Assembly: GCA_963776285.1 (NCBI GenBank)
Contig: CAVZLW010000006.1
Coordinates: forward strand, 38,188 to 102,187
Direction of reading: 5' to 3'
DNA from: an uncultured Chloroflexia bacterium
GTDB taxonomy: Bacteria > Chloroflexota > Limnocylindria > Limnocylindrales > CSP1-4
DNA length: 64,000 nt
Of the stretch, positions 15,209-60,919 are shown piece by piece. Numbering within the stretch: the first letter of the stretch is position 1; every line of letters begins with the position of its first letter. The position numbers were made by a program, and so were the translations under genes. Below the pieces are notes generated by a model. That model was not told the origin of the DNA. It made no database searches and was given only the letters and a program-made list of their open reading frames with translations.

Positions 15209-15437
15209 GGGGGTGGAGTCTCCGGGGAGGGTCGAGGGGGCGGTTCGATCACGCGGCGGGTCGATTATGCCCGAGGGCCGATCCGGCCACCTGTGGCTCC
15301 CGCGAGCCGCCGGCGCGCCGCGATGCGGGCACGTGTCAGAGGGCACTTCCCACGGGGATCGGGCGGAGTAGCGTGGGCATGCAAAGCCGGGCAGGAGCGG
15401 GGGCGAGGGCAGCGGGACGACACGGGGAGCATGCACC

Positions 15438-16595
15438 GTGGACTTCGACCTGTTCCTCCGAGGGGCTGCCGTGAGCCGGCGCAGCGTCCTGGGCGCGGTA
15501 GGGCTGGCGGGAGCCGCGATGGCCGTGGGCGCATGTGGCAGCGCCGGGCCGCCGGCCCGGTCGCCCGGCGAGGGCGGCACCCCGGCGGCCTTCGGCGACA
15601 CCGAGGGCTCCCTCTCGATGCTGAACTGGCCCGACGACGTGAACCCGGACAACGTCGACCAGTTCAAGCGTCGCTTCGGCATCTCCGCCTTCCGCGACGA
15701 CATCATTGCGAGCAGCGACGCGCTGCTCGAGGCGCTCGGGGGCGGACCTCCCGGCCGCGACATCGCCGCGCCGGCCGGGGTGCTCGTCCCGCGCCTGGTG
15801 GAGATGGGGCTGATCCAGAAGCTCGACCGGTCGCGGATCCCGAATGCGACGAACGTCGACGCGTCCTTCCGCCGTCCCGCCTGGGACCCCGCCGACGAGT
15901 ACCAGGTACCGAAGGACTACGGCACGACCGGGATCCTGTACCGGAGCAGTCTCGTCCCGGAGCCGCTGGAGTCGTGGAGAGAGTTCCGGGCCCTGGTCAC
16001 GAACGGCCGCTACAGCGGGAGGACCGTCTTCGTCGACTCCAGCGACGACGTCCTGGCCTTCCCGCTGAAGCTGCTCGGGTCGTCGGTCAGCACGGTCGCG
16101 AAGCGCGAGCTCGAAGCGGCCCGCACGATCCTGCTCGAGGTGGCTCCCCACCTCCAGGCCCTGGACTCGACGGGATACGGAGAGCGCCTGCGGTCCGGAC
16201 AGGCCGTGCTCGCGCTCGGCTGGGCCGCCCCGCTGGCGGGCCTTCGCACGGACCCCGAGGCCGTCGACACGCGGTACGTCGTGCCGAGCGAGGGGACGCT
16301 CCTGTGGCTCGACACCTGGGTCCTGCTCGCCGGCGCCGCCCACCCGAAGGCGGGCCACGCGTGGCTCAACTTCATCCACGAGCCCGAGGTCCAGGCCAAC
16401 GAGACGAACTACACGCGCCACGCGACCCCGGACCGGGCCGCCCGGGCGCTCGTCGATCCCGCGCTCCTCGCCGACCCGGCCGTCTTCCCGCCGGACAGGC
16501 TGATGGCCAGGCTGGAGGTCGCGGGGGACACCTCGGGCAGCCGGCAGCGGGCCGACATCTGGGCGGAGTTCCGGTCGAAGGTCGGCCGAGGCTGA
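15438..16595 (+). CDS. spermidine/putrescine-type ABC substrate-binding (lipo)protein, Tat signal; no adjacent permease or ATPase
   Basis: GTG at 15438. The signal is [23 protein letters not shown] (twin-arginine motif plus lipobox-like VGAC). The fold is PotD/PotF family (…[16 protein letters not shown]…[31 protein letters not shown]…). An SD sequence (ggggag) precedes the start. Confidence 0.8.
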
Positions 16596-21779: not shown

Positions 21780-23989
21780 TCAGGCCCCGGAGCCGCCCTC
21801 CCCGGCCGCCCCGGCGATCCGCCCGAGGAGCGCGGACGCCAACGTCCGGACGGCCGTCGCGTCCCGCGCGACGAGCGCGGCGCCTGCCAGCTTGCGGAGC
21901 TCCGCGCTCGTGACGGCGGCCAGCGCCAGGCGCACTTCGTCGAGCGAGCCGGCGTCCGCAGACAGCTCGTCGACGCCCAGGCCGACGAGCACCAGGGCAC
22001 CTGCAGGGTCGCCGGCGAGCTCCCCGCACACGGCCACGGGGATGCCGGCGGCGTCGGCGCCGGCCACCACGCCCGCGATCGCCCGCAGCACGGCGGGATG
22101 GAGGGCGTCCTGGAAGCGACCCAACGTGGCGTTCCCGCGGTCCGCGGCCATCACGTACTGGGTCAGGTCGTTCGTGCCGATGCTGAAGAAGGCCACCCGC
22201 CGGGCCAGCTCCGGGGCAAGCAGCGCGGCGGCCGGGATCTCGACCATGATGCCGGTGACCATCGCCTCGGCGCAGACCTGGCCGGCCGCGAGGACCCCCG
22301 CACGGGCCTCGTCGCGCAGGGACTCCAGGAGGTCGACGTCGTCGAGAGTCGCGACCATGGGAGCCATGACGTGCGGTCGCACGCCGGCCAGCCCGCCGGC
22401 TCGCCAGATCGCCCGGAGCTGGGTCCGCAGGAGCTCGGGGTCGCCGTACGCCAGGCGGATCGCCCGCACGCCCAGGAAGGGGTTCGCCTCCGCCGGCAGG
22501 CCCAGGTAGGGGATCTCCTTGTCGCCCCCGATGTCGGCCAGCCGGACGACGACGGGGCGGTCCGGGCCGAATGCCTCGAACGCGCGCCGGTACGCGGCGA
22601 CCTGCTCGTCCTCGGTGGGCGGCACCTGGCGCCGCATGAAGAGGAACTCGGTCCGGAAGAGCCCGACGCCCTCGGCGCCGGCCTCGAGCGCCCGCGGCGC
22701 GTCGTCCGGATTGCCGATGTTCGCCACGAGGAGGACGCGGGCGCCGTCGGAGGTTGCCCCGGGCGCGGCCGCGCGCCGCGGCGGCCCTGGCGCGCCGCGC
22801 GGCGAGCGCCGCCGCGCGCTCGGCCAGGGCGGCCTTTCGCCCCGGCGTCCGGGTCGATGAGGACCTCGCCGGATTCGCCGTCGAGGGCGATCTCGACCGC
22901 GACTCCCGACGCGGCGGCGTCGTCGACCGCCTCCAAAAGCCCGGCGCACCCGACGACGCACGGGATGCCGAGCCCGCGGGCAAGGATCACCGCGTGCGCC
23001 GTCCGCGACCCGCCGGCGAGGGCGATGCCGCGCAGGAACGCGGCCGGGATCTCGGCCGTCACCGAGGGCGGCAGGTCGTCGGCGATCGCGACGACGGGGG
23101 CATCGGGGAGCGCCAGCGTCTCGCCGCGCAGGATCCGGGCGATCCGCGCGCCGACGTCCCGCACGTCCGCGGCGCGCGCCGCCAGCAGCTCGTCGCCGAG
23201 GCTGGCGATGGCGAGCGCCGCCTCCGATGCCGCGGCCGTGACGGCCGCGGCCGGGTCGGCTCCGGCCGTCACGCGCTCGAGAGCGTCGTCGACGATGGTC
23301 GGGTCGGTGGCCAGGACCGCCTGGGCCTCGAAGATCCCCGCGTCGTCGGGCCGTCCTGCTGCCCGGATGCGGGCTGCCAGCGCGTCGAGCTGGGCCTCGG
23401 CCTCCGCAGCTGCCGCGCGGATCGCGGTCGCGGGATCACCGGTTGCCGCGGCCGGCGCGGCGGACGGCTGCTCGCGATAGCGCCACGCCGGTGCCGTCGC
23501 GATGCCGGCGACGGCACCGTCCCCGCGAAGGCGGCGGGCGCCCGGATCCACCGCCGGGCCGGTCCCGGCCACGGCAGGCGACGGCGGCAGGGGCGGCCCG
23601 GGCTGGGCGGCAGAGGCCCCGGGGGCCGCAGGAACGGCAGCGGCCGACGGCGCCGCGGAGGCCGGCGACGCAGCAGGCGCTGCGGCGGCCTCGGGAGCCG
23701 CGGGACGCGGGGGGATCTCCTCGCCCAGGCCGGCCTCGATCGCCGCCCTGATGGAGGCGATCGCCTCCACCTCGTCCTCGCCCTGGGCCGTGATCCGGAC
23801 CACGTGGCCCATGCGCACGCCCAGCGGCTGGACCCTCAGCATCTGCTTCGCGTTGGCGGGACCCGCTCCCGTGGACAGGTTCTGGATCGTCACGTCCGAG
23901 CGGACCTTGCCGCAGGTCCGGACGAACTGGCCCAGCGGTCGCAGGTGGAGTCCGTTCGGGTTGCGGATCTCGATCTCGAGCGTCTGCAC
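21780..23989 (-). pseudogene. ptsI: HPr–Enzyme I fusion (ptsH-ptsI) gene, interrupted by two single-nucleotide frame changes
   Basis: Frame A (23989 down to ~22845) encodes an HPr domain (MQTLEIEIRNPNGLHLRPLGQFV…), an Ala/Pro linker, and the EI N-terminal and phospho-His domains (GGSRTAHAVILARGLGIPCVVGC). Frame C (about 22840..22760) encodes the EI linker helix RKAALAERAAALAARRARAAAARG. Frame B (22760..21780) encodes the PEP-utilising TIM barrel (LLVANIGNPDDA…GVGLFRTEFLFM…FFSIGTNDLTQY…CGELAGD). The switches occur at the C/G runs at 22840-22844 and 22757-22763. Confidence 0.75.
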
Positions 23990-24006: not shown

Positions 24007-25131
24007 TCAGGGCACGGGACGGCGAGGCTGGTCGGCCTCGGGGGCCGCCGGCGAGGCCGGACGACCGGCCTGGCCGGTAGCGAGGAGTGCGACGATGCGG
24101 GACGGCTCAGCCGCCAGGTCGGCGGCCAGGACCGGGTCGACGGTCGCCGCGTCGACGAGCGCGGCCAGGGCGGCATTGACCGGCGTCGCGACGCCGCACG
24201 CGATCCCGGCCCGGGCCACGGCCCCGTTGAGCCACGCGACCTCCGAGGGTCCCTCAGCTCCGCCCCGCAGGTGGAGCCGGAGGGACGGCGACTTTCCGCC
24301 GCGAGCCCCGCCGACCACCCGGCGCAGGGCGAACCGCGACAGCCGGCGCGGCAGGCGGATGCCGATGGCGAGGAGGGGCACGTTCGCTCCCGGGAGCCCA
24401 ACCGGCCGGATCTCCAGGGCGCGCATCACGGCGAGCGCCTCGAGCAGCTGGCGGCGCTCGACGTCGAAGAGCGCGGGGTCGGCGTAGAGGACCGCCGGGT
24501 CGCGGTCTGCGAGGGCGGAGAGCGCGTTGCCGACGAGATTGGCCAGCAGCTTCGACCACTTCATGGCCCGCGCATCGGAGATTCGCCGCGCCGGCAGGCC
24601 CGCCCCGCCGAAGTCGTCGACGAGCGCGGCCACCAGCCCGTCGACGTCCCCCGCGACACGGGCGAGGCCGATCCCGCCCCGGCCGCGCCACTCCACCTCC
24701 TGCGGGCGCGAGCGCTCGACCGGCGCGGTCAGCGAGCCGGCGACGTGGGCGATCCCCGGGCGGGCCGCCGCGACGAGGTCCTCCGCGCCGACGCCGTTCT
24801 GGATCGTCAGCACGGGAGCCGAGGGCCAGGCTCGCAGGTCGTCGAGGGCCCCGGCCAGGTCGAACGTCTTCACCGCGAGGACGACCAGGTCCGGGGACGC
24901 GGCGAGCTCGGCCGGGGTGCTCGCGCGGCGCACGCGTGCCACCACGCGACGGCCGTCCGGCTCGTGGACGACGATCTCGTCGCCCGCGTCGGGCACGCGC
25001 GGGTCCAGCAGGACGACCTCGGCGCCGGACGCGGCCAGGAGGCCTCCCAGCAGCGTCCCGACCGCGCCCGCCCCCAGCACGGCGACGCGCCGCGGCGCGC
25101 CGGGCAGGCCGGCCGCGGCGGTCGCGCTCAC
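24007..25131 (-). CDS. ketopantoate reductase (PanE/ApbA) family NAD(P)-dependent oxidoreductase
   Basis: It has the Rossmann motif VAVLGAGAVGTLLGGLLAASG, a catalytic Lys in VKTFDL, and KWSKLLANLVGNALSAL. The order and spacing of these match the PanE family. Its stop overlaps the dhaM start. Confidence 0.7.
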   Translation of the reverse strand: MSATAAAGLPGAPRRVAVLGAGAVGTLLGGLLAASGAEVVLLDPRVPDAGDEIVVHEPDGRRVVARVRRASTPAELAASPDLVVLAVKTFDLAGALDDLRAWPSAPVLTIQNGVGAEDLVAAARPGIAHVAGSLTAPVERSRPQEVEWRGRGGIGLARVAGDVDGLVAALVDDFGGAGLPARRISDARAMKWSKLLANLVGNALSALADRDPAVLYADPALFDVERRQLLEALAVMRALEIRPVGLPGANVPLLAIGIRLPRRLSRFALRRVVGGARGGKSPSLRLHLRGGAEGPSEVAWLNGAVARAGIACGVATPVNAALAALVDAATVDPVLAADLAAEPSRIVALLATGQAGRPASPAAPEADQPRRPVP

Positions 25132-25535
25132 TCCGGGATCTTGGGCAGGGTCGCGGCCTCCTCCGCCGCGGCGAGGACGGCGGCCAGGTCGTCGCCGCAG
25201 CTCGCCTGGACGGCGGCAACGACGGCGCCCTCCACCAGCGGCCCGCCCGACAGGCGGACCCGTGCCGCCGCCTGCTCCCCGAGGAGCTCCAGCGCCGTCT
25301 GGGTGGCCAGCACCGCGCTGCCCAGGTCGACGAGGACGAGGACGCCCGCCCCGGCGTCCGCGGCTGTGATCGCGGCCATGATGGCGGCGGCATCCGTTCC
25401 GAGCTGGCCGTCGGCGGTCCCGCCGGCGGCCTCGATGCGCAGGTCGTCGCCGGCCATCTGGCGGGCCAGCTCCACCGTCCCTGCCGCGATCTGCGCGGAG
25501 TGGCTGACGATGACGATCCCGACAAGCTCATCCAT
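25128..25535 (-). CDS. dhaM: PTS-dependent dihydroxyacetone kinase phosphotransferase subunit, EIIA(Man)-like domain only
   Basis: 135 aa. GIVIVSHSAQIAAGTVELARQM … GTDAAAIMAAI … LVLVDLGSAVLATQTALELLG … RVRLSGGPLVEG aligns closely to the E. coli DhaM N-terminal domain (phosphorylatable His in VSHS). It has no HPr or EI-like extension. Confidence 0.85.
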   Translation of the reverse strand: MDELVGIVIVSHSAQIAAGTVELARQMAGDDLRIEAAGGTADGQLGTDAAAIMAAITAADAGAGVLVLVDLGSAVLATQTALELLGEQAAARVRLSGGPLVEGAVVAAVQASCGDDLAAVLAAAEEAATLPKIPE

Positions 25536-25544
25536 GGCGGGTTC

Positions 25545-25937
25545 CTATGGCGCCGCGTTGATGATCGCCGCGAAGAGGACGACCCCGTAGACGACGGTGA
25601 TGATGCCGACGACCGACAGGACGTTCGTGATCCGCCGCTCCGTCCGCTCCGAGAAGCCGAAGTCGAACAGGATGGCCCGCACGCCCACCAGGGCGTGGTA
25701 CGTCACGAAGACCAGGAAGCAGACCTCGAGGACGATCACCACCGGGTTCCGCAGCCAGTCGATGACCTCCTGGTAGAAGCGCAGCCCGCTTGGCGCGACG
25801 AAGTGCTGGGCGATCATGTGCAGCCCCAGCAGGACGATCAGCGCGACGCCGCTGACGACCTGGCCCACGAAGACCGGCACGCCGCGCGAGCCGGCGGGGC
25901 GATCGGCCGGCCGTGGTTCGGTGGCCATCTCGCTCAC
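25545..25937 (-). CDS. succinate dehydrogenase-type hydrophobic membrane anchor subunit (SdhD-like)
   Basis: 130 aa with three predicted TM helices and a conserved His in HALVGV. It lies 3 nt downstream of the SdhC-like gene. Confidence 0.6.
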   Translation of the reverse strand: MSEMATEPRPADRPAGSRGVPVFVGQVVSGVALIVLLGLHMIAQHFVAPSGLRFYQEVIDWLRNPVVIVLEVCFLVFVTYHALVGVRAILFDFGFSERTERRITNVLSVVGIITVVYGVVLFAAIINAAP

Positions 25938-25940
25938 CTC

Positions 25941-26360
25941 CTACTCGCCCGCGAAGATCCGAAGCGCCCCGACGAGCGCCACGAAGGCCGCGATGACCAT
26001 GAACGCGATGAAGAGCGCCTTCTGCCGGCTCGCCACGAGCCCCAGCCCGACGAGACCGACGCGGATCCCGTTCAGGCCGTGGATCAGCATCCCCGTCAGG
26101 AGGAAGACATCGAGAAGGAGGAACGGGGGGCTGAGCGCGATGTTGACGAAGCTGTCCCAGGCGTTCGGCCCCTGGACCAGCATCGACAGGATCATCAGGT
26201 GGAGATAGAGGTAGACGACGAGGCCGAGCCCGGTGAGGCGGTTGAGGATGAAGGCCAGGCCACCGAGGCGACGGCCGCGCGGGTCGAACCAGCCGACGAT
26301 GCCCCGGCGACGCGCGGGGCCGGCTACGGGCCGCGGCCGCTCGACGGTCGTGCTCGCCAT
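25941..26360 (-). CDS. succinate dehydrogenase-type cytochrome b subunit (SdhC-like)
   Basis: 139 aa with three TM helices (…LAFILNRLTGLGLVVYLYLHLMILSM…LTGMLIHGLNGIRVG…), carrying candidate heme-ligating His residues. Its ATG overlaps the SdhB-like stop (TGATG). Confidence 0.6.
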   Translation of the reverse strand: MASTTVERPRPVAGPARRRGIVGWFDPRGRRLGGLAFILNRLTGLGLVVYLYLHLMILSMLVQGPNAWDSFVNIALSPPFLLLDVFLLTGMLIHGLNGIRVGLVGLGLVASRQKALFIAFMVIAAFVALVGALRIFAGE

Positions 26361-27106
26361 CAGCGGTTTCCTCCGAACGAGAAGAGGCGTCGCGCCCGGG
26401 CCGCGGCGGCCGACCGGCGGAGCCGCATGATCGCGGCTGCCGGGTCCACGCCGGACGGGCAGGCCTCGGAGCACTCCCAGGTCAGGTGACAGCGCCAGGC
26501 GGCCTGGTCGTCGTCCATCAGCCGGATGACGGGGCCCGGGTCGAGCCCGCGGGGCTCCTCGACCACGCGCCACGCCGCGGCGAGCGCGGCGGGGCCCACG
26601 TAGCGCGGGTCGCTGCCGGCCACCGGACAGGCGGAGAGACAGATCCCGCACTCGATGCAGTCCTCGTAGCGATCCAGCTCGTCGATCCCTTCCGCCTTCT
26701 CGGCGCCGGGGATCTTCTCCGAGGACCTGACCAGCGGCCGGCCGGCCTCGTCGAACTCGTCGAAGAAGACGTTCATGTCGACGACGAGGTCGGAGAGGAC
26801 CGGGATGTTGTCGAGCGGCTCGACGACGACCTCGGCGCCGGCCGGAACGGGCGTCACGCAGGCCAGGCCTTCCCGGCCATTCACCTGCATCCCGCACGTC
26901 CCGCACGAGGCGTGGAAGCAGGAATGCCGGAAGGTCAGGCTCGGGTCGAGCTCGCGGCGGATGGCCACGAGCGAGTCGAGGATGGTCGTGCGGGGCCCGA
27001 CGGCCACGTCGAAGGTGTCGTAGCGCAGCGCCGCGGGATCGTCGCCCTCCTTCCGGCGGGAGACGACGAAGCGGGTCGTGCGGAGGTCGGTCGCGCTGTC
27101 GGTCAT
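26360..27106 (-). CDS. succinate dehydrogenase/fumarate reductase-type iron-sulfur subunit (SdhB/FrdB family)
   Basis: The 2Fe-2S segment DPSLTFRHSCFHASCGTCGMQVNG…LAC…DLVVDM is followed by CIECGICLSACP ([4Fe-4S]), GPAALAAAWR, and CHLTWECSEACP ([3Fe-4S]). It is collinear with E. coli SdhB. Confidence 0.85.
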   Translation of the reverse strand: MTDSATDLRTTRFVVSRRKEGDDPAALRYDTFDVAVGPRTTILDSLVAIRRELDPSLTFRHSCFHASCGTCGMQVNGREGLACVTPVPAGAEVVVEPLDNIPVLSDLVVDMNVFFDEFDEAGRPLVRSSEKIPGAEKAEGIDELDRYEDCIECGICLSACPVAGSDPRYVGPAALAAAWRVVEEPRGLDPGPVIRLMDDDQAAWRCHLTWECSEACPSGVDPAAAIMRLRRSAAAARARRLFSFGGNR

Positions 27107-27116
27107 CGCTCCGCTC

Positions 27117-28304
27117 CTACGCCGCGTAGTACGCGGTGTGCGGAAGGGTCACGACCTCCCGCGTCTGGCACGGCGCCTCGACGCCGACCTTGCGACAGAT
27201 GACGTCGGCCGTCGTCTCGGCCATCGCGCGGAGGGTCGTCCCCTTGCCGCCGGAGATGGTCACGAAGCCCTCGACGCCGTCCGTCTCGCGGTGGTCGAAG
27301 CACTTGAAGGTCCGGCTGAGCTCGCGGCCGCTCTCGGCGTCCTTGGAGCCGATCAGCGGGCGGGCGGCCGACCAGGCGGCCCGTCGCTCCGCGTGGCGGA
27401 TCGCGGGGATCATGGTCGACCCCTCGACGTACATCCGCTCGACGTGGTCCTCGGGCACTCCCAGGTCGTCCGGATCGTCCACGACCCAGGAGCTGGTGCC
27501 GACAACGGAGAGGCCCCGCTGGGGCACCACGATGTCGCCGTCACCGGAGGGGTGCAGGCGGTTCACGACCATGTTGCACCAGCGGCCGCGGACGGCCAGC
27601 AGGACGCCGGGCGAGGGCCGGATGGGCACGTCGCAGCCGGCCATCACGGCGAGCTGCTCCGCCCATGGCCCGGTGGCATTCACGACGAGGTCGGCGCGGA
27701 TCTCCTCCTCGACGCCGTTCACGAGGTCGCGGACCCGGATCCCGGAGACGAGGTGGTCGGCCACCAGCATCTCGGTCACGGTGGTCCAGGGACGGACGAC
27801 CGCGCCTCCCGCCTTCGCGCTGGCGAAGAAGCGGAGGGGCATCCGCATCGCGTCCATCGTCGCGTCGGGGACCTGGACGGCCATCCTGACCTGGGGGTTC
27901 AGGTTCGGCTCCAGGCGCAGGGCCTCCTCGCGCGAGACCCGGCGCGCCGGGATGCCGCTGGCGAGGCAGGACTCGAAGAACAGGGGCTCGTAGGCCACGT
28001 CCTCGTCGGTGATGGCGACGAAGAGCCCGTCGTTCGCCTCGAAGGCGCCCGGGCAGACGCGGCCCAGGATCTGGCGCTCCTCGATGCACTCGACGGCGGA
28101 CTCGCGATCCTTGACCGCGTAGCGAGCTCCGGAGTGGAGCAGGCCGTGGTGGCGGCCGGTCGTCCCGGAGGTGATCTCGCCACGCTCCACGAGCGTCACG
28201 CGGAAGCCCCGGAGGACGAGGTCGTGGGCGAGCGCGCCGCCGGTGCCGCCGCCCCCCACGATCGCGACGTGGAAGGGCTGTCGGGGTAGTCGGGTGATGG
28301 TCAT
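27117..28304 (-). CDS. glpA: FAD-dependent glycerol-3-phosphate dehydrogenase, GlpA-type flavoprotein lacking the C-terminal BFD-like Fe-S domain
   Basis: The ATG at 28304 gives MTITRLPRQPFHVAIVGGGGTGGALAHDLVLRGFRVTLVERGEITSGTTGRHHGLLHSGARYAV, near-identical in pattern to the E. coli GlpA N-terminus. Similarity continues to ...FVTISGGKGTTLRAMAE...CRKVG. The 395-aa product corresponds to about the first 400 of E. coli GlpA's 542 residues. Confidence 0.85.
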   Translation of the reverse strand: MTITRLPRQPFHVAIVGGGGTGGALAHDLVLRGFRVTLVERGEITSGTTGRHHGLLHSGARYAVKDRESAVECIEERQILGRVCPGAFEANDGLFVAITDEDVAYEPLFFESCLASGIPARRVSREEALRLEPNLNPQVRMAVQVPDATMDAMRMPLRFFASAKAGGAVVRPWTTVTEMLVADHLVSGIRVRDLVNGVEEEIRADLVVNATGPWAEQLAVMAGCDVPIRPSPGVLLAVRGRWCNMVVNRLHPSGDGDIVVPQRGLSVVGTSSWVVDDPDDLGVPEDHVERMYVEGSTMIPAIRHAERRAAWSAARPLIGSKDAESGRELSRTFKCFDHRETDGVEGFVTISGGKGTTLRAMAETTADVICRKVGVEAPCQTREVVTLPHTAYYAA

Positions 28305-28373
28305 GTGCTGCGCTCCGCGCCCTGACAGGGAGATGCCCGGGCCCCGCGTGCGGGGCCCGGGCACCGGGAGGGT

Positions 28374-29873
28374 CTAGTCGACCCAGCCGAACGTGCGGGT
28401 GACGGCCTTCTTCCACTGCGCGTACTCGGCGTCGACCTTCGCGGGATCCATGGTCGGATGCCACTCGTGGTCCTTCGCCCAGTTCGCGCGGAGGTCCTCG
28501 ACCTCGGCCCAGTAGCCGACCGCCAGGCCGGCCGCGTAGGCCGCCCCGAGGGCCGTCGTCTCGGCGACCTTCGGCCGGATGACCGGGACCTTCAGGACGT
28601 CGGACTGGAACTGCATCAGCAGGTTGTTGTAGACCATGCCGCCGTCGACCTTGAGGGCCGTCAGCGGAACGCCGGAGTCGGCGTTCATCGCGTCCAGGAC
28701 CTCGCGGGTCTGCCAGGCGGTCGCCTCGAGCACGGCTCGGGCGATGTGGCCCTTGTTGACGTACCGGGTCAGGCCGGCGATGACGCCGCGGGCGTCGTTC
28801 TTCCAGTACGGCGCGAAGAGGCCGCTGAACGCCGGCACGAAGTAGACGCCGCCGTTGTCCTCGACCGTGGCCGCCAGGGCCTCGATGTCGGGCGACGCCG
28901 CGATCAGGCCGATGTTGTCGCGGACCCACTGCACGAGGGCGCCGGTGATGGCGATCGACCCCTCGAGGGCGTACACGGCCGGCTGGTTGCCGATCTTGTA
29001 GCCGAGCGTCGTGAGGAGGCCGCTCTTGCTCGGGACGGCCTTCGTGCCCGTGTTGAGGAGCATGAAGCAGCCCGTGCCGTAGGTGTTCTTCGCCTCGCCG
29101 GGCGAGAAGCACGTCTGGCCGAAGAGGGCAGCCTGCTGGTCGCCCAGGTCGCCGGCGACGGGGACGCCGAGGAGGTCGCCGACGGCCCGGCCGTAGACCT
29201 CGGACGAGGCCTTGACGGCGGGCAGCATCGCGTGCGGGACGCCGAGCAGCGCGGTGATCTCGGGATCCCAGGCCAGCGTGGTGTAGTTGAACATCAGGGT
29301 CCGGCTGGCGTTGGAGACGTCCGTCACGTGGACGCCGCCGGTGGTGCCGCCCGTCAGGTTCCAGATGCACCAGGTGTCGATGTTGCCGAAGAGGAGGTCG
29401 CCGGCCTCGGCCGCGGCGCGCGCGCCGTCGACGTTGTCGAGGATCCACTTGACCTTCGGGCCCGAGAAGTAGGTCGCCAGCGGCAGGCCGGTCTTGGGGC
29501 GGAGGCGATCCGGGCCGCCGTCCTTCTCGAGGTAGTCGCAGATGTCCTTGGTGCGCGTGTCCTGCCAGACGATGGCGTTGTAGACGGGCTTGCCGGTCTT
29601 CTTGTTCCAGACGACCGTCGTCTCGCGCTGGTTGGTGACGCCGACGGCGGCGAGGTCCTCGGCCTTGAGGTGAGCCTTGGCGAGGGCGCCCTTGATGACG
29701 TCCTGGCTGCGCGCCCAGATCTCCATCGGGTCGTGCTCGACCCAGCCGGGCTTCGGATAGATCTGCTCGTGCTCCATCTGATCGATCCCCACGACCTCAC
29801 CGGCGTGGTTGAAGATCATGAAGCGGGTGCTCGTGGTCCCCTGGTCGAGGGCCCCCACGAAGTTCTTCGCCAT
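28374..29873 (-). CDS. glpK: glycerol kinase
   Basis: 499 aa. [27 protein letters not shown] and KVDGGM follow the FGGY-family GlpK organisation. Confidence 0.97.
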
Positions 29874-29911: not shown

Positions 29912-30544
29912 CTAGTGCCCGGCCCAGACCTCTGCGGCGGACCGCAGGAGGAGATGCGAGGACGTCGCGCCGGGATCCTGGTGCCCGGCCGACCGCTCGC
30001 CGAGGTAGCTCGCCCGGCCCTTGCGGGCGACGAGCGGCACCGTGGCGAGCATGCCCTGCTGTGCCCCGTCGGCCATCCGGGCCAGGGCGTCGCCGACGGT
30101 GGCGCCGTCGGCGATCGCGGCCCGGAGAGCGTCGCGGGCGGGGATGAGGGCATCGACCATCGTCTTGTCCCCGGGCTCGGCCTTCCCGATCCGGAGGACC
30201 CCGCCGAGACCGGCTTCGTAAGCCGTGGCGAATTCCTCCAGCGTGAGGGCTTCCTTCCCGGCGATGGCGCCTCCCATCTGCATGAAGAACATCCCGTAGA
30301 GCGGGCCGCTGGCGCCCCCGACCGTCGAGACGAGCGTGGTGCCGACGGTCTTGAGGGTGGCCCCGATGTCGGGGCCCGTCAGGCCGTCCAGCTTGCCGGC
30401 CACGGCGGTGAAGCCGCGGTCCATGTTGATCCCGTGATCGGCATCGCCGATCGCCGAGTCCAGGTCCGTGAGATACGCCTTGTTCTCCGTCACGACGGCG
30501 GCGAACCGGCGGATCCAGGCGAGGATGTCGTCGTGCGAGATCAT
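29912..30544 (-). CDS. dhaL: dihydroxyacetone kinase ADP-binding subunit
   Basis: It has [19 protein letters not shown] (Mg/ADP site), GGASGPLYG and [10 protein letters not shown]. It lies immediately downstream of dhaK. Confidence 0.9.
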
Positions 30545-30592: not shown

Positions 30593-31591
30593 TCACAGGC
30601 CCCAGCGGAGGCCCGGCGTGAGGACCGGTGCGTCCCAGTACTTCGTGAGCTCGTCATCGAGGCGGAGGAGGGTGATCGAGCAGCCCGCCATCTCCAGCGA
30701 GGTGATGTAGTCCCCGACCAGGTTCCGGGCGATCGTGATGCCGCGGCCGTCGAGGATCTTCTTGAGCTCGTTGAAGACGACGTACAGCTCGATGAGCGGC
30801 GTGCCGCCCATCCCGTTGACGAAGGCGAGGACCTTGTCGCCCCTCTGGAACGGAAGGTCGTCAAGGATCGGCGTGGCGAGCATCGCCGTGATCTCGGCGG
30901 CGGAGGCGATCTTCATCCGCGTCCGTCCCGGCTCGCCGTGGATCCCGACGCCGATCTCCATCTCGTCGTCGCCGAGCTCGAACGTCGGCTTGCCGGCCTG
31001 CGGGACGGTGCAGCTCGTGAGGGCCATGCCCATGGAGCGCACGTTGTCCTGGACCTTCTGGCAGAGCGCCGTGACGGTCGCCAGATCGGCGCCCGCCTCG
31101 GCGGCCGCGCCGACGATCTTCTCGGCGAGGACGGTCCCCCCGACGCCGCGGCGGCCCGCGGTGTAGAGCGAGTCCTTGACCGCGACGTCGTCCGCGATGA
31201 CGACGCTGGTGACCTCGATCCCCTCGGCCCGGGCCATCTCGGCCGCGAGCTCGAAGTTCATGATGTCGCCGGTGTAGTTCTTGACGATGTGCAGGACGCC
31301 GGCGCCGGCGTCGACCGCCTTGGTCGCGGCGAGCATCTGGTCCGGCACGGGCGAGGTGAAGACTGCGCCGGGGCAGGCTGCATCGAGCATGCCCATCCCG
31401 ACGAAGCCGCCGTGCATCGGCTCGTGGCCGGAGCCACCGCCCGAGATCACGCCGACCTTGCCGGCCCTGGGGGCGCCGGCGCGCACGACCACGTTGGGCT
31501 CGATGACCCGCACGAGGTCGCCGTGCGCCGCCACGACGCCCGCGAGAGCGTCGTCGACGACGGTTTCGGGAGCATTGATGAGCTTCTTCAT
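30593..31591 (-). CDS. dhaK: dihydroxyacetone kinase Dha-binding subunit
   Basis: 332 aa containing [25 protein letters not shown] (active-site His) and …NYTGDIMNF…. An SD GAGGA precedes the ATG. Confidence 0.93.
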
Positions 31592-31710: not shown

Positions 31711-32484
31711 TCACTTGGCCGCGTTCACGACCAAGCTGACGAAGACACTCTGGTAGATGATCGCCGCGAGGACGCCGCCGACGAGCGGGCCCACGACCGG
31801 GATCCACGAGTAGCCCCAGTCGGAGTTGCCCTTGCCGGGGATCGGCAGGATCGCGTGCATGATGCGCGGCCCAAGGTCGCGGGCCGGGTTGATGGCGTAT
31901 CCGGTCGTCCCGCCGAGGGACAGGCCGATCACGAGGACGAGGAAGGCAACGGGCAGGGCGCCGAGGGACGCGAGACCGCCCGAGGTGGGCCCGACGTTGT
32001 TCCCGAAGGCGAAGATCACGAAGACCAGCACGAATGTGCCGATCACTTCGGAGATGAAGTTGAAGACGGTGTTGCGGATCGCCGGCCCGGTCGAGAAGAC
32101 CGCCAGCTTGAGGCCCGGGTCCTCAGTCTCGACCCAGTGCGGGTAGTAGTGGATGAAGACCAGGAAGGCACCCAGCATCGCGCCGATCATCTCGCCGATG
32201 ATGTACGTGCCGAAGGTCGGAAGGTCCATCGGGTTGGGCCCGCCCAGGATCAGGTCCCGGGTGTAGATGCCGATGGTGACCGCCGGGTTCAGGTGGGCGC
32301 CGCTGAACGGGCCCGCCACCACGACGCCGCAAAAGACCGCAAAGGCCCACGCCATGGTGATGACAATCCAGCCGCTGGCATTCGCCTTCGACTTGGCGAG
32401 CAGGACGCCAGCGACCACGCCGTCGCCGAGAAGGATCAGGATCATCGTCCCGAAGATCTCGGCAAACAGGATTTCGCTATTCAT
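31711..32484 (-). CDS. glpF: aquaglyceroporin (glycerol uptake facilitator)
   Basis: 257 aa with six TM segments and two NPA boxes (GAHLNPAVT, GYAINPARD). An SD GAGGGAGAG precedes the ATG. Confidence 0.93.
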   Translation of the reverse strand: MNSEILFAEIFGTMILILLGDGVVAGVLLAKSKANASGWIVITMAWAFAVFCGVVVAGPFSGAHLNPAVTIGIYTRDLILGGPNPMDLPTFGTYIIGEMIGAMLGAFLVFIHYYPHWVETEDPGLKLAVFSTGPAIRNTVFNFISEVIGTFVLVFVIFAFGNNVGPTSGGLASLGALPVAFLVLVIGLSLGGTTGYAINPARDLGPRIMHAILPIPGKGNSDWGYSWIPVVGPLVGGVLAAIIYQSVFVSLVVNAAK

Positions 32485-32809: not shown

Positions 32810-33466
32810 TCAGCCCCCGGCGGCGGCGTCGGCGAGGGCCCGCAGCAGGAGGGCGCTCGACGCGGCCCCGGGATCCATGTGGCCGATCGAGCGCTCCCCG
32901 AGGTAGCTGGCCCGGCCCTTGGTGGCGAGGAGCGGGATCGTCGCCCGGGCGCCGGCCTCGGCCGCCCCGGCCGCACGCGCCGCCGCGTCGGCGAGCGGCG
33001 CTCCCGCGCCGACCGCCACCTCGAAGGCCGCGCGTGCCGGCAGCAGGGCGTCGAGCATCGTCTTCTCCCCCCGGGCGGCCCGGCCCAGGGCCGCGATGGC
33101 GTCGACCGCGGCGGCGAAGGCGACGACCGCCTGGGCCTCCCGGCCCGGGGCCGGCCGCCGGCCGTCGCTCGCGGCGGGCAGGTCGAGCGAGGTCCCGGCG
33201 CGCTGGAAGCCCCGTCCGTAGAGCGCCCCGCTCGCGCCGCCGACCGTGCCGATGAGGGTCCGACCGGCGGCCTCCAGGACGAGGGGCGGTGGATCGCCGG
33301 GACACTCACCAGTGTCGAGCCGACGGATCAGCTCCCGGAACCCGCGATCGAGGTTGATCCCGTGGTCGCCGTCGCCGATCGCCGCGTCGAGGTCCGTGAG
33401 GTGCTCGCGCTGGTCGGCGACGCGGGCCGCGGCGAGGCGCAGCCATCGAACCAGGAGATCCTCCAT
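32810..33466 (-). CDS. DhaL-family (Dak2 domain) protein, paralog 2
   Basis: It has DLDAAIGDGDHGINLDRGF, GGASGALYG and [10 protein letters not shown]. Its start overlaps the stop of the second dhaM-like gene by 1 nt. Confidence 0.85.
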   Translation of the reverse strand: MEDLLVRWLRLAAARVADQREHLTDLDAAIGDGDHGINLDRGFRELIRRLDTGECPGDPPPLVLEAAGRTLIGTVGGASGALYGRGFQRAGTSLDLPAASDGRRPAPGREAQAVVAFAAAVDAIAALGRAARGEKTMLDALLPARAAFEVAVGAGAPLADAAARAAGAAEAGARATIPLLATKGRASYLGERSIGHMDPGAASSALLLRALADAAAGG

Positions 33467-33894
33467 CAGGACCCCGTGCCGGCCAGCCAGTCGGGCGGCA
33501 GCTTCGGCGCCCGGCCCTCGGCGTCCGCGGCCACCCGGACCTGCTCGCGGGTCGAGCCCCCGGCCGCCTCGACGGCCGCCCGGATGGCCCCCTCGACGAG
33601 GGGGCCCTGGCTCACGGCGACGAGCCCTCGCTCGAGCGCCGGGAGCTCCTCGAGCGCCATCTCCAGGGCCATCGCGGCACTCCCCAGGTCGAACAGCACG
33701 ACGACGCCGTCATCCGGTGACGCGGCCAGCCCCGCGTGCAGCGCGTCGAGGATCCCCGGGCTGCTCGTGCCCAGGTTCCCGACGAGGGTCCCCCCGGCGA
33801 TCGCGACGGGGACGGCGGGGGCCGCCTGGGCCACCATCGCCCTGAGCGCGCGCAGCAGGTCCGGGCTGTGGCCGACGAGCACCAGCGAGACCAT
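33466..33894 (-). CDS. DhaM-like EIIA(Man) domain protein, paralog 2
   Basis: In ORF 33466..34608 the upstream part is antisense junk of the + strand dhaL3. The ATG at 33894 gives MVSLVLVGHSPDLLRALRAMV…GVVVLFDLGSAAMALEMALEELP…GPLVEG, with the same architecture as dhaM. Confidence 0.8.
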   Translation of the reverse strand: MVSLVLVGHSPDLLRALRAMVAQAAPAVPVAIAGGTLVGNLGTSSPGILDALHAGLAASPDDGVVVLFDLGSAAMALEMALEELPALERGLVAVSQGPLVEGAIRAAVEAAGGSTREQVRVAADAEGRAPKLPPDWLAGTGS

Positions 33895-33972
33895 CGGATC
33901 GACTCCGCGCCCTGCATTTCGGGGGCGCCGGCGCCACGCGACCCCGCCCGCCGCCGTAGACTCAGGCGGCTG

Positions 33973-34686
33973 ATGAAGAGGATAGGGACCCTGGCGCCTC
34001 CCGCGCGCGTCGACGCCGTGCGTGTCCCGCACGCCGGGCTGTCCGCGTCCGACGTCCTCGGGTTCGTCGAGCGCGCGGCGACGACGCTCACCCGGCACGA
34101 GGCACTCCTCGATCGCCTGGACGCGGCGCTGGGTGACGGCGACCACGGGACGAACATGCGGATCGGCTTCGTCGCGGCGATCCCCGTGGCGCGTGCCGGG
34201 CTCGCGGAACGACCCGACGACGTCGGCGAGCTGCTCCGCATCCTCGGCCACAGCCTCGTCGGCAGCGTGGGCGGCGCGAGCGGTCCCCTCTACGGCACGG
34301 CCTTCATCGAGGCTGGCTTCGCGCTCGCGGGGCGGCCCTCCGCCGACGCCAGCGACCTGGCCGCCGCGCTGGAGGCCGGGCAGGCGGGGCTCGTCCGTCG
34401 CGGCCGCTGCGCCATCGGCGACAAGACGATCCTGGACGCGCTCGACCCCGCGGTGCGCGCCCTCCGGGCGGGTGCGGCGGCCGGCCACCCGATCGACGCG
34501 TGCGCCGCCGGCGCCGCGGTCGCCGCCGCGGCCGGCATGCGGTCGACGATCCCCCTGGTGGCACGTCGAGGGCTGGCCCTGCGGCTCGGCGAGCGGTCGC
34601 GGGGTCATCGCGACCCCGGCGCAACCTCCTGCTTCCTCCTCCTCGAGGCGATGGCCCGGGCCGTTCGCCGGGAGCCGGCGGCATGA
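33973..34686 (+). CDS. DhaL-family (Dak2 domain) protein, paralog 3, translationally coupled to sensor kinase
   Basis: The ATG at 33973 gives MKRIGTLAPP…, with [29 protein letters not shown] and …RLGERSRGHRDPGA. Its stop TGA overlaps the kinase ATG (ATGA at 34683-34686). Confidence 0.8.
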   Translation: MKRIGTLAPPARVDAVRVPHAGLSASDVLGFVERAATTLTRHEALLDRLDAALGDGDHGTNMRIGFVAAIPVARAGLAERPDDVGELLRILGHSLVGSVGGASGPLYGTAFIEAGFALAGRPSADASDLAAALEAGQAGLVRRGRCAIGDKTILDALDPAVRALRAGAAAGHPIDACAAGAAVAAAAGMRSTIPLVARRGLALRLGERSRGHRDPGATSCFLLLEAMARAVRREPAA

Positions 34687-36428
34687 CCAGGGCGACGCGG
34701 GACCAGGCGCGAAAGGCGCCTGCCGCGACGTCGACCGGCCGCCCGGCGGAGCTGGAGGTCAGGATCCGCGAGCTCGAGGCAGAACGACGGCGCGTCTTCG
34801 AGGATGCCCAGCGCGAGGCCGACGCGATGTTCGCGCAGTATCAGCTGAGCCAGCTGCTGGCGGCGGGCGGGAGCGTGGACGAGATCGCGGCCGCCGTCCT
34901 TGCCGAGGTGGCGCGAGCGTGCGGGGCGGCGGGGGCGGCGCTGTGGCTCGCCGGCCCGGGGAGCCGGGCCCTCGGGCTGGTGGCGATGTTCCCCGGCGAC
35001 GCGGACGATCCGGTCGGTCCCGGCTGGGTGGTGGTGCCCCGGGGCTTCACCGACGCCTGGGCCGCCGCGTCGTGGGCCGCGCTGGGCGGATGGAGCGGCG
35101 TCACGCTCCCCGAGGGCCGCTCGATGGGCGGCGGCGCGCCGCCGAGCGGCGGGACAGGCGCGGTCGGGTACCTCGCCGTCCGGGCGGACGGCCGCGTGCC
35201 CCTGGAGCCCGACAGCGAGCGCTACCTGGCGAGCGTCCGCCGGGAGCTGGCCATCACGCTGCGGGCCGCCCAGCTGCGCGCCTCGCTGGCCCGCGAGCAG
35301 GCGACCCTGGCGGCGATCCTGGAAGGTGCCACCGATGCGATCGTCGCCGTCGACTGGAGCCGGCGCGTCGTCCGCCTCAATGCCGCCGCGGCGGCGCTGG
35401 TCGGCACGTCGGCCCGGACCGGGACCGGGATGCGCTGCGCGGAGTTCCTGGGCTGCGTCCGTCCGATCGCCGAGGGCAGGCTGCTCGGCGACGGGATCGT
35501 CGCCGAGCAGCCCCCGGACCTCCTGTGCGGTCAGCGCTGCCCCTTCGCGGAGGTCCTCGAAGGCGGCCTGCCGATCGTCGGCCGGGAGCTCGCGGTGCGC
35601 CGGCGCGATGGCGGCGAGATCCCGGTCGCGGCGAGCGTGTCGCGGATGCCGGTGCCCGACGGCGGCGCCGTGGCCATCCTCCGCGACCTGCGCGCCGGGC
35701 GCGTGCTGGACGACGCGAAGACCAGCTTCGTGGCGGCGGTGTCACACGAGCTGCGCACGCCGCTGGCCCTGATCGACGGCTATTCGCAGAGCCTCCTGCA
35801 CCTGGACCTGGACCGCCCGACCGCGCGGCGCCACGTCGAGCGCATCGCCGACGCCGCGCGCCGCCTCGCGACCCTCGTCGACGACATCATCGACGTGAGC
35901 CAGCTCGAGAGCGACATGCTCGTCCTGCGCCGCACGCCGGTCGCCATCGACGGCCTCCTGCGCACGTACGTGGCCGAGCGAGCCGACGGGCTCGACGCAC
36001 GCCTGATCGCCCTCGCGCTGCCGCGCCTGCTGCCGCCCGTGGACGTCGACGCCACGCGGATCCGGCAGGTCATCGCCAACCTCGTCCAGAACGCCGAGAA
36101 GCACGCCGGGCCCCGCGCGCCGATCGAGATCCGGGCGCGCCACACCGACGACGCCACCGTCGTGGTCACCGTGGTCGACGGCGGTCGCGGCATCGCTCCC
36201 GAGGATCGCGACCATGTCTTCGAGCGCTTCTACCGGGGAAGGCGCGTGCGGGAGTCGCAGGTGCCGGGAAGCGGCCTCGGGCTGTACCTGTGCCGCCGCA
36301 TCGTCGAGGCCCACGGCGGCTGGATTCGCCTCGATGCGACCACCCGGGGGACCTCCATCTCGGTCGGACTCCCGGTGGCGCCCCTGTCCGGCGGCGGAAG
36401 CGGGCCGCGCCGCGAGGCCCCCGCATGA
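34683..36428 (+). CDS. cytoplasmic sensor histidine kinase (coiled-coil/GAF-like, PAS, HisKA, HATPase_c)
   Basis: MTRATRDQ… has no TM segments. It has an N-terminal coiled coil (ELEVRIRELEAERRRVF), a PAS-like segment (AILEGATDAIVAVDWSRRVVRLN), an H-box (FVAAVSHELRTPL), an N-box (QVIANLVQNAEKH) and G-boxes (DGGRGI…GSGLGL). Confidence 0.85.
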   Translation: MTRATRDQARKAPAATSTGRPAELEVRIRELEAERRRVFEDAQREADAMFAQYQLSQLLAAGGSVDEIAAAVLAEVARACGAAGAALWLAGPGSRALGLVAMFPGDADDPVGPGWVVVPRGFTDAWAAASWAALGGWSGVTLPEGRSMGGGAPPSGGTGAVGYLAVRADGRVPLEPDSERYLASVRRELAITLRAAQLRASLAREQATLAAILEGATDAIVAVDWSRRVVRLNAAAAALVGTSARTGTGMRCAEFLGCVRPIAEGRLLGDGIVAEQPPDLLCGQRCPFAEVLEGGLPIVGRELAVRRRDGGEIPVAASVSRMPVPDGGAVAILRDLRAGRVLDDAKTSFVAAVSHELRTPLALIDGYSQSLLHLDLDRPTARRHVERIADAARRLATLVDDIIDVSQLESDMLVLRRTPVAIDGLLRTYVAERADGLDARLIALALPRLLPPVDVDATRIRQVIANLVQNAEKHAGPRAPIEIRARHTDDATVVVTVVDGGRGIAPEDRDHVFERFYRGRRVRESQVPGSGLGLYLCRRIVEAHGGWIRLDATTRGTSISVGLPVAPLSGGGSGPRREAPA

Positions 36429-52568: not shown

Positions 52569-52648
52569 GTGCGACGCGAAGTCTACGGTGAGCGGCCCGG
52601 ACGGTCAGAGCGGGTCGCACGGCACTCGACGGAACCGGCCCGGCGGGG

Positions 52649-53707
52649 TTGGATGGACGGGTGAATCGTGGCGCCGCCGACCTGCCCGCGCTCCGCCGCC
52701 TCGCCCTGATCCGGCTCGAGGGGCGGCGGGCCGACGACCGCGAGGTGCGGGCGCTGGAGGGGGCCCTGGACGTCGACCCGTGGGTCACCCCGCTCCTGGC
52801 GGGTGCCGTCCGCGTGGACGCGGCCGGCGACCGGGTCCCGGTCCACCCGTACCAGAAGTGGCGCGGCGCCCACTGGCGCCTGGTGGCGCTCGCCGAGCTG
52901 GAGATCGGCTGCGACGTCGCGGCGGCGGCCCCACCCATCCGGGCCGCCTTCGGAGCCGTGGTGGAGTGGCTGGAGGCGCCCGGGCGGCTGGCGCGGGCAC
53001 ACCCCGTCGCAGGGCGCGCCCGCATGTGCGGCAGCCAGGACGGGAACGCCCTGTGGGCGGCCTGCCGGCTCGGGCTCGCCGCGGACCCGGCGACCGCGCG
53101 GATGGCGGCGCGGCTCGTCGCCTGGCAGTGGCCCGACGGCGGATGGAACTGCGACCCGCGTCCCGACGCCACCCACGCCTCCCTCCACGAGACCTGGACC
53201 CCGCTCCGCGGGCTCGCCGCGTACGCCGAGGTGGGATCCGAGCCGGCGCTGCGCGACGCCTGCAGGGCCGCGGCCGCCGCCGCCGCCGACTTCCTCCTGC
53301 GGCACCGTCTCGTCGAGCACCACCGCGACGGCGACGTCATCGATCCCTCGTTCCTGCGCCTCCGATGGCCGCCCTACTGGCACTACGACCTGCTGGCAGG
53401 GCTCGGGGCCCTCCGGGAGGCGGGGGCCGCGTACCTCCTCGACCCACGAGCCGGGCCGGCGCTGGCACGGCTCGACCGGATGCGCGGCGGCGACGGGCGC
53501 TGGCATCCCGCCGGGCGGTGGTGGCATCCACCCGCATCGCAGGGTTCGAACGTCGAGCTCGTTGACTGGGGCGCCGAGGGCGAGGCCGCGATGCTCACGC
53601 TCGGGGCGCTCGCGATCTGCTCGGCCACCGACCGGGCGTCGGGCGACGTCGAGCCGCACCGGGCGGCCCGGCGCGGGGTCGACGCGGTGGAGCCTTCGCG
53701 AGGCTAG
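52649..53707 (+). CDS. hypothetical protein with prenyltransferase/terpene-cyclase-like QxxDGGW repeats
   Basis: ORF 52649..53707 has diverse composition. WQWPDGGWNC and GGDGRWHPAGRWW resemble alpha/alpha-toroid repeat motifs. Its 3' end overlaps the convergent REC-MinD gene by 4 nt. Confidence 0.5.
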   Translation: MDGRVNRGAADLPALRRLALIRLEGRRADDREVRALEGALDVDPWVTPLLAGAVRVDAAGDRVPVHPYQKWRGAHWRLVALAELEIGCDVAAAAPPIRAAFGAVVEWLEAPGRLARAHPVAGRARMCGSQDGNALWAACRLGLAADPATARMAARLVAWQWPDGGWNCDPRPDATHASLHETWTPLRGLAAYAEVGSEPALRDACRAAAAAAADFLLRHRLVEHHRDGDVIDPSFLRLRWPPYWHYDLLAGLGALREAGAAYLLDPRAGPALARLDRMRGGDGRWHPAGRWWHPPASQGSNVELVDWGAEGEAAMLTLGALAICSATDRASGDVEPHRAARRGVDAVEPSRG

Positions 53708-60689: not shown

Positions 60690-60919
60690 CGGTGCACCGG
60701 CCACCATCCGCGACTTCTACACCACCCGACGCATTCGCGTTCGAGCGGGCGCCGGCGCCGGCCGCCCGGCGCGGACGGCGTGCCCGCGACGACGCGGGCA
60801 GCGCGTCGCGGACGGCGTTCTCGCGACGCGGGCGTCGCGGGGCGTGCCCCGCCGCGGTGGCCGCGCGGGCCGGCGGCGGCCGGAGGCGGGCCCGGCCGGC
60901 GCCGGGCCCGCGGTGCGCG

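Follow-up and report, generated by a model that had tools for sequence, protein, structure and literature searches.

We describe a block of four adjacent minus-strand genes, at positions 25545-28304 of a 64-kb stretch of DNA (~74% G+C; referred to below as the window) from an uncultured Chloroflexia bacterium, which, as read from the sequence, encode in this order a short GlpA-type flavoprotein, an SdhB-like iron-sulfur protein, and two small membrane anchors resembling SdhC and SdhD. We consider it probable, at about three chances in four, that the four genes encode a membrane-bound, complex II-like glycerol-3-phosphate (G3P):menaquinone oxidoreductase with a swapped flavoprotein. A G3P:quinone oxidoreductase had already been predicted by a sequence-only reading of the block, and the inference is strengthened by the gene-neighbourhood survey of GlpA homologues which that reading had proposed, as glpA and sdhB proved adjacent in 80 of 80 related loci and in 5 of 5 more distant clades. 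The genes are separate and translationally coupled, with no fusion among them, and the earlier description of the flavoprotein as "fused" into the membrane module holds for the adjacency of the four genes but not for the word itself.

The short GlpA and its complex II-type partners

The flavoprotein is placed in the GlpA clade by both profile and fold. It matches the GlpA model TIGR03377 with 425.9 bits (E = 2e-127), the match covering profile positions 1-375 of 530 and ending at residue 386 of 395, and the Pfam DAO family at 2e-42, with no Pfam match to either Fer2_BFD (PF04324), which is detected on the canonical and fused relatives, or DAO_C (PF16901); the proposal of a truncated GlpA devoid of the C-terminal BFD-like [2Fe-2S] domain is thereby borne out. 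With the two GlpD equivalog models, whose cut-offs are 360 and 352, the protein gains 86.6 and 69 bits, respectively, the best SdhA-family model reaches 15.9 bits, and the N-terminal FAD_binding_2 match is weak (27.5 bits). In the AlphaFold2 model (pLDDT 82.8, pTM 0.84) the DAAO (D-amino acid oxidase) fold is followed by just a four-residue terminal helix (residues 391-394), and the nearest PDB folds are those of GlpD and GlpO (TMq 0.78-0.83), with the glycine oxidases next and SdhA not among the matches. The hidden Markov model scores and the fold neighbours together rule out an SdhA or L-aspartate oxidase (NadB) identity, against which the GlpA assignment was to be checked.

Ten residues of the short GlpA (R51, H53, H57, R61, Y62, R315, R331, H338, K354, and R359) are identical in 17 of 17 GlpA-clade proteins compared, canonical ones included. 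Four of them, namely R61 in the GGxRY motif, R315, R331, and K354, we take to be residues of the G3P/flavin adenine dinucleotide (FAD) site, presumably equivalent to Arg54, Arg317, Arg332, and Lys354 of GlpD, in keeping with their family-wide invariance. The protein ends in an aromatic tail, HTAYYAA (residues 389-395; window positions 27117-27137), and the corresponding pattern [H/Y/F]-x-x-[Y/F]-[Y/F/R] recurs in all seven SdhB-linked short GlpAs compared, while being absent from the stand-alone, CoxG-linked, and canonical GlpAs of the 17-protein comparison. This tail may be a docking element for the SdhB-like subunit.

The iron-sulfur subunit scores 182 bits against TIGR00384 (cut-off 88), carries Fer2_3 and Fer4_8/17, and finds its best PDB matches, over both domains, in E. 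coli SdhB (1nek_B, 1e-38) and the SdhB of Mycobacterium smegmatis Sdh2 (6lum_B, 1e-35). The three clusters originally attributed to it are matched by a complete set of ligand cysteines, arranged as C63-x4-C68-x2-C71-x11-C83 for the 2Fe-2S, C150-x2-C153-x2-C156-x3-C160-P for the 4Fe-4S, and C206-x5-C212-x3-C216-P for the 3Fe-4S cluster, and all 11 are invariant in 70 orthologues, as is His207, which corresponds to the histidine of the quinone site in E. coli.

Both anchors match Pfam Sdh_cyt (46.6 bits for the sdhC-like and 50.9 bits for the sdhD-like product; cut-off 25.8). The best PDB match of the former is the SdhC of M. smegmatis Sdh2 (6lum_C, 4.5e-11), while the latter matches 6lum_C (7e-8) and E. 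coli SdhC (5e-3). Invariant in 69 orthologues are H54 and H94 of the sdhC-like and H37, H42, and H78 of the sdhD-like protein, with H54 and H94 aligning with His47 and His87 of 6lum_C, which are the ligands of heme bD and heme bP, respectively, in Sdh2 (PMC7447783). H37 and H78 occupy the equivalent positions in the first and second transmembrane helices (TM1 and TM2) of the sdhD-like protein, such that each anchor appears from its sequence to be a three-helix protein with a heme bD histidine in TM1 and a heme bP histidine in TM2; the four heme-type histidines are also retained in a Bacillota protein in which SdhB, SdhC, and SdhD are fused. The earlier prediction of two small heme b-type anchors is supported by these matches and alignments, and the four invariant histidines amount to a predicted signature of the diheme type-A anchor, the kind used with menaquinone.

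The glpA and sdhB-like genes are 10 nt apart, the sdhB-like stop and sdhC-like start overlap by 1 nt (TGATG), and the sdhD-like gene more likely starts at ATG 25928 than at the alternative GTG 25937, because GGAGG lies 8 nt ahead of this ATG and the spacers in close orthologues measure 9-13 nt. Of the spacers of 10, 0, and 3 bp initially reported, the first is correct, the second is a -1 overlap, and the third would apply only to the GTG start.

No SdhA, GlpB, or GlpC was found in the 64-kb window by Pfam scans of 20 open reading frames (ORFs), these being 19 of the 20 candidates of at least 347 amino acids (aa) with coding-type third-position G+C (GC3) plus the ORF of an HPr-Enzyme I (HPr-EI) protein; the remaining candidate, at 15372-16595 (+), overlaps the scanned AdoHcyase gene. 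Searches with tblastn using SdhA, GlpB, GlpC, and CCG queries agreed: leaving aside the SdhB-like gene's own ferredoxin motif, the best E in the window was 0.23, with the SdhA query having had no positive control and the GlpB and GlpC queries picking up theirs, the canonical glpABC of locus L090. The reported absence of these three genes from the window is hence upheld by both methods.

Conservation of the GlpA-SdhB pair and exchange of the membrane module

A genome scan at one genome per species returned 172 relatives, and the best 80 of the 172 loci were examined; they derive from ~32 Chloroflexota-labelled metagenome-assembled genomes (MAGs), including Limnocylindrales, Anaerolineae, Ardenticatenaceae, and Promineifilaceae, and ~47 Actinomycetota-labelled MAGs, among them Solirubrobacterales. 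No database record matches the GlpA protein exactly; the closest relative, at 95% identity, belongs to a Chloroflexia/Limnocylindrales MAG. The organism of the window itself appears to be a high-G+C, Limnocylindria-type member of the Chloroflexota, and its nearest relatives are MAGs with this label. The SdhB-like gene stands immediately 3' of glpA in every one of the 80, elsewhere often with an overlap (-4 or -1), and both anchor genes are present in 73; the other seven comprise three loci cut by contig ends and four in which an SdhB-CCG fusion is found. The usual cluster reads glpF-dhaK-dhaL-glpK-glpA-sdhB-sdhC-sdhD-dhaM, no GlpB or GlpC is encoded downstream of glpA in the related loci, and the SdhA query mentioned above had no match within the 5-6 kb reach of any of the 91 loci fetched.

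More distant short GlpAs were sampled from an exhaustive representative search and their contigs inspected. All five SdhB-linked clades among them (43-53% identity) have SdhB directly downstream, and their membrane module consists of separate SdhC and SdhD proteins, of an SdhB-C-D triple fusion, or is missing. The triple fusion (571 aa), from the Bacillota MAG GCA_014896355.1 (locus L081, 50% identity), follows glpK and a short glpA and overlaps the latter by 11 nt; an Anaerolineae-type genome (45% identity) has glpK-glpA-sdhB-sdhC-sdhD without dha genes; and in loci L084-L086 (43-53% identity) glpA-sdhB pairs occur without anchors, their SdhB-like proteins of 221-241 aa retaining 11 of 11 cysteines, with two of the three loci lacking an adjacent glpK. 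Four Solirubrobacterales loci have, behind the short glpA and with no sdhC or sdhD after it, a gene for a 527-528-aa protein in which the [2Fe-2S] domain of the SdhB N terminus is joined to a ferredoxin domain, whose second motif (CxxCxxCxxxCP) is complete, and to a CCG domain; judged by its sequence, this protein resembles a TfrB/GlpC-like variant of the same theme. The conserved core is the GlpA-SdhB pair, and the membrane end is interchangeable. The controls behave differently: canonical GlpAs have no SdhB neighbour, and the archaeal Nitrososphaeria relatives of 434 aa, the sole ones seen to adjoin coxG, as in Sulfolobus, likewise have no SdhB neighbour.

One Solirubrobacteraceae locus with the full glpA-sdhBCD set (L069) carries on the opposite strand, ~3 kb past sdhD, a gene for a GlpC-like protein (ferredoxin plus CCG) with 48% identity to the GlpC of L090. 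The latter locus also supplied a 408-aa "short GlpA" (P0165) that turned out to be the first piece of a frameshifted canonical glpABC and was kept out of the counts. Such mimicry, together with the frameshifts present in the window and in related long-read MAGs (the HPr-EI gene occupies two frames), is what could be said for the notion that the short GlpA is an assembly or annotation artefact, a canonical protein cut by a frameshift whose glpB and glpC were lost or misread. This notion has next to no chance of being right and is effectively refuted by the conservation data, as the length of ~395 aa and the position of the stop recur in independent assemblies by the dozen, database proteins of about this length number in the thousands, and the ORFs that follow encode complete SdhB and Sdh_cyt proteins rather than pieces of BFD, GlpB, or GlpC.

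Proposed enzyme, competing explanations, and genomic surroundings

In the proposed enzyme, glycerol would enter through the MIP channel and be phosphorylated by GlpK, and the resulting G3P would be oxidized at the FAD of the short GlpA, freeing dihydroxyacetone phosphate (DHAP) for glycolysis. The flavoprotein would dock onto the SdhB-like subunit at its N-terminal ferredoxin domain, whose [2Fe-2S] cluster would substitute for the BFD cluster lost from GlpA, and electrons would pass from FAD through the 2Fe-2S, 4Fe-4S, and 3Fe-4S clusters and one or two hemes b to menaquinone; the contact, the path, the heme count, and the acceptor are all predictions. Succinate:menaquinone reduction is not exergonic. 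Electron transfer from G3P to menaquinone is, because G3P lies at ~-200 mV and menaquinone at -75 mV (PMC11962113 supplement).

Several points weigh against this proposal. The iron-sulfur wire is not chemically obligatory, because the short GlpA-type G3P dehydrogenases of Sulfolobus, which are of the CoxG type, reduce quinone directly, without an Fe-S partner (PMC11962113), and the short GlpA of locus L091 stands alone, with no partner gene. The GlpA:SdhB contact is predicted from linkage, and no GlpA-SdhB fusion occurs among the 80 loci or the long representatives, where the two-domain relatives of 920-1000 aa join GlpA to GlpB (with DAO, in most cases Fer2_BFD, and FAD_binding_2 of the GlpB type) and a 1013-aa relative has DAO only. 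The heme number and quinone type are predictions from sequence. The GlpA-linked SdhB-like proteins are 33-50% identical to each other and 29-37% identical to E. coli SdhB, and a dedicated SdhB clade is not demonstrated, because these pairwise identities separate them from the E. coli protein marginally. Finally, the absence of the canonical partners applies to the 64-kb window, and a canonical sdhABCD or glpBC may lie elsewhere in the genome.

One explanation that draws on these points lets the short GlpA act alone, as GlpD and the Sulfolobus enzymes do, with the sdhBCD-like genes serving a succinate:quinone oxidoreductase that gets its SdhA from another part of the genome, an arrangement to which the generic SdhB/FrdB score of the iron-sulfur subunit, well past the family cut-off, and the window-wide rather than genome-wide SdhA search would also be congenial. 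We regard it as highly improbable, as glpA and sdhB stay adjacent in different phyla, in many cases with stop and start codons that overlap, and do so while the membrane module changes, whereas SdhA was found neither in the window nor near any of the fetched loci; sdhBCD genes orphaned from sdhA yet constantly beside glpA would be an odd coincidence, and the constant core combined with the variable membrane end therefore argues strongly against ownership of sdhBCD by an SdhA elsewhere.

A second explanation, which we hold to be improbable, though less so, accepts the complex of short GlpA and SdhB-like protein but gives it another role, be it with some other substrate of the 2-hydroxy or amine kind, with a soluble acceptor where anchors are missing, or in the reverse reaction, i.e. 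quinol-driven DHAP reduction supplying G3P for lipids. The anchor-less pairs, two out of three without glpK beside them, fit such a role, complex II enzymes are generally reversible, and plsY lies ~4 kb downstream of the block in the window. Against it, canonical GlpAs have the very same presumed G3P-binding residues, the layout is a catabolic one in the window and most loci, where glpF lies upstream and the genes are placed between glpK and dha genes, and biosynthetic G3P normally comes from the NAD(P)-dependent GpsA.

A bolder generalization can also be sketched, against which we see the odds as rather long: the GlpA/SdhB pair would be a widespread and so far unrecognized "head swap" that bacteria have made on the chassis of complex II, with a DAAO-fold flavoprotein docking by a new interface (perhaps the aromatic tail) and feeding an SdhB wire, the membrane end of which is interchangeable and takes the form of diheme SdhCD, fused SdhBCD, CCG, or none. 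In genomes of the anchor-less kind, the GlpA-SdhB head and SdhAB might both use the housekeeping SdhCD anchor, and the diheme versions might link the oxidation of G3P to electron transfer across the membrane.

The glycerol context invoked at the outset (glpF, glpK, dhaKLM, and plsY) is confirmed by profile scores, with GlpK, DhaK, DhaL, DhaM, and PlsY (157.5 bits) above their cut-offs and the MIP channel slightly below (Table 1). The cluster of the window has the order glpF-dhaK-dhaL-glpK-glpA-sdhBCD-dhaM, i.e. the four genes are flanked upstream by those for GlpK, DhaL, DhaK, and the MIP channel and downstream by those for DhaM, an ApbA/PanE-family reductase, the HPr-EI protein, and PlsY. The position of the channel gene is kept in the related loci, dhaM directly follows sdhD in the window and most of them, and glpK precedes glpA in most, as well as in L081, L083, L084, and L091.

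Table 1. Features of the window and of related loci (L numbers; coordinates are those of the respective locus)
Feature	Position	Strand	Remarks
glpA-short	27117..28304	-	395 aa; ATG 28304, stop 27117
sdhB-like	26360..27106	-	248 aa; ATG 27106, TGA 26362-26360
sdhC-like anchor	25941..26360	-	139 aa; ATG 26360, stop 25941
sdhD-like anchor	25545..25928	-	127 aa (130 aa from GTG 25937); ATG 25928
glpK, glycerol kinase	28374..29873	-	NF000756, 771.6 bits (cut-off 498)
dhaL, dihydroxyacetone kinase subunit	29912-30544	-	TIGR02365, 239.3 bits (above cut-off)
dhaK, dihydroxyacetone kinase subunit	30593-31591	-	TIGR02363, 491.7 bits (above cut-off)
MIP-family channel, likely GlpF	31711..32484	-	TIGR00861, 164.1 bits (slightly below cut-off 171.25)
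dhaM, EIIA-Man-type phosphoryl donor	25128..25535	-	TIGR02364, 134.7 bits (cut-off 98.25)
GC-rich 15-bp hairpin	28332..28365	-	within the 69-nt glpK-glpA spacer
ApbA/PanE-family oxidoreductase	24007-25131	-	2-dehydropantoate-reductase-like; overlaps the dhaM stop
HPr-EI fusion gene	21780-23989	-	split over two frames; switch at ~22763-22834
Second DhaM-like EIIA(Man) ORF	33466-33900	-	TIGR02364, 84.5 bits (below cut-off 98.25)
Histidine kinase gene	34137-36428	+	adjoins the second DhaM-like ORF
SdhB-CCG fusion, L032	7185-8768		
SdhB-CCG fusion, L034	7184-8767		
SdhB-CCG fusion, L039	7193-8779		
SdhB-CCG fusion, L028			frameshifted
SdhB-SdhC-SdhD fusion, L081	7220-8935		
Anchor-less sdhB-like, L084	6222-6887		
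Anchor-less sdhB-like, L085	6212-6883		
Anchor-less sdhB-like, L086	6212-6937		
GlpC-like gene, L069	12094-13164	-	
ApbA-family gene, L090	9074-10123		Pfam alone

The hairpin in the glpK-glpA spacer has a perfect stem and a 4-nt loop, with no T-run after it, and a 91-nt stretch containing it folds at -53.8 kcal/mol (z = -3.7; 0 of 200 shuffles as stable). The stem is kept in nine close loci, with paired substitutions in L003, L006, L009, and L012, and the hairpin is possibly an intercistronic element for processing or stability by which the ratio of glpK to glpA-sdhBCD expression is set.

Among the other neighbours, the ApbA/PanE-family oxidoreductase is a candidate for the missing glycerol/dihydroxyacetone oxidoreductase supplying DhaKLM. 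A homologue of it occurs in 20 related loci, and in L090 the glpC of the unrelated canonical glpABC is directly followed by a gene of the ApbA family. The split of the HPr-EI gene points to indel errors in a long-read MAG or to a pseudogene, with the orthologue being in a single frame in L003 and showing several frame changes in L001. The second DhaM-like ORF is located upstream of the glycerol cluster. Two further ORFs, at 58917-60716 (-; 599 aa) and 52592-53707 (+; 371 aa), measured from stop to stop and with coding-type GC3, match no Pfam family at E <= 1e-5.

Relation to known glycerol-3-phosphate dehydrogenases and complex II

The architecture had been thought undescribed, which proved incorrect: a "GlpA-SdhBCD (T. 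pendens)" type has been named from synteny for the archaeon Thermofilum pendens (Fig. 9b in Commun Biol 2025/bioRxiv 2024; PMC11962113), where the Thermofilum-type GlpAs (Tpen_1127) are described as almost entirely without the C-terminal extension. A full-text literature search found the term "GlpA-SdhBCD" in no other paper. The system of the window fits the architectural definition of this type, as matched by the published description rather than by sequence orthology: both have a GlpA-clade protein with DAAO fold and almost no C-terminal extension, followed by SdhB, SdhC, and SdhD counterparts, and both are read as modules that are anchored in the membrane and carry off electrons from the oxidation of G3P. 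They differ in that the Thermofilum type is archaeal and known from synteny, whereas the system described here is bacterial, accompanied by dhaKLM, and variable in its membrane module. It is thus a bacterial example of an enzyme type predicted from archaeal synteny. According to the same paper, glpB and glpC are consistent companions of glpA in bacteria (PMC11962113), a statement that the bacterial glpA-sdhB loci contradict. What our analysis adds to the literature is the breadth of the type (Chloroflexota, Actinomycetota, and Bacillota MAGs), the GlpA-SdhB core and its exchangeable membrane modules, the diheme-type signature, and the partner-specific tail.

Should the complex form, the Fe-S/heme module of complex II would not be bound to SdhA/FrdA but would also serve a structurally different flavoprotein, and GlpD and GlpABC would be joined by a third major design of respiratory G3P dehydrogenase. 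Among the uncultured Chloroflexota and Actinomycetota of soil and fresh water this design is common, and it is seen in one Bacillota MAG; the exchange of its membrane module is similar to that among complex II types A to F. In the annotation of MAGs, these sdhBCD genes are liable to be mistaken for a succinate dehydrogenase and should not be taken as evidence of one or of a complete tricarboxylic acid cycle.

With GlpABC of E. coli and Haloferax, the window system shares the catalytic flavoprotein family, the presumed G3P-site residues, and, as predicted, an Fe-S route to menaquinone, and the GlpC of the former and the Solirubrobacterales SdhB-CCG variant have a common ferredoxin plus CCG design. 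The window GlpA, however, is without the BFD [2Fe-2S] domain, and in place of GlpB and GlpC, neither of which is found in the window, there is an SdhB with a plant-ferredoxin-type [2Fe-2S], a [4Fe-4S], and a [3Fe-4S] cluster, along with predicted heme b anchors. M. smegmatis Sdh2 (6LUM), a succinate:menaquinone oxidoreductase of type A with two anchors and two hemes, chains of which are among the best PDB matches, has the same Fe-S cysteines and bP/bD histidines, but the window flavoprotein is without the FAD_binding_2 plus Succ_DH_flav_C architecture, and no aid from the proton-motive force would be needed for menaquinone reduction, because the predicted substrate is G3P and not succinate. 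GlpA-CoxG of Sulfolobus acidocaldarius and GlpD likewise employ a short or BFD-less flavoprotein to oxidize G3P at the membrane; they reduce quinone directly and are held there by CoxG or by their own surface, whereas the window system has no DAO_C and no coxG gene in its operon, and encodes an Fe-S/heme wire instead. The window system is therefore outside the definitions of GlpABC, GlpD, GlpA-CoxG, and, no SdhA having been found, bona fide complex II.

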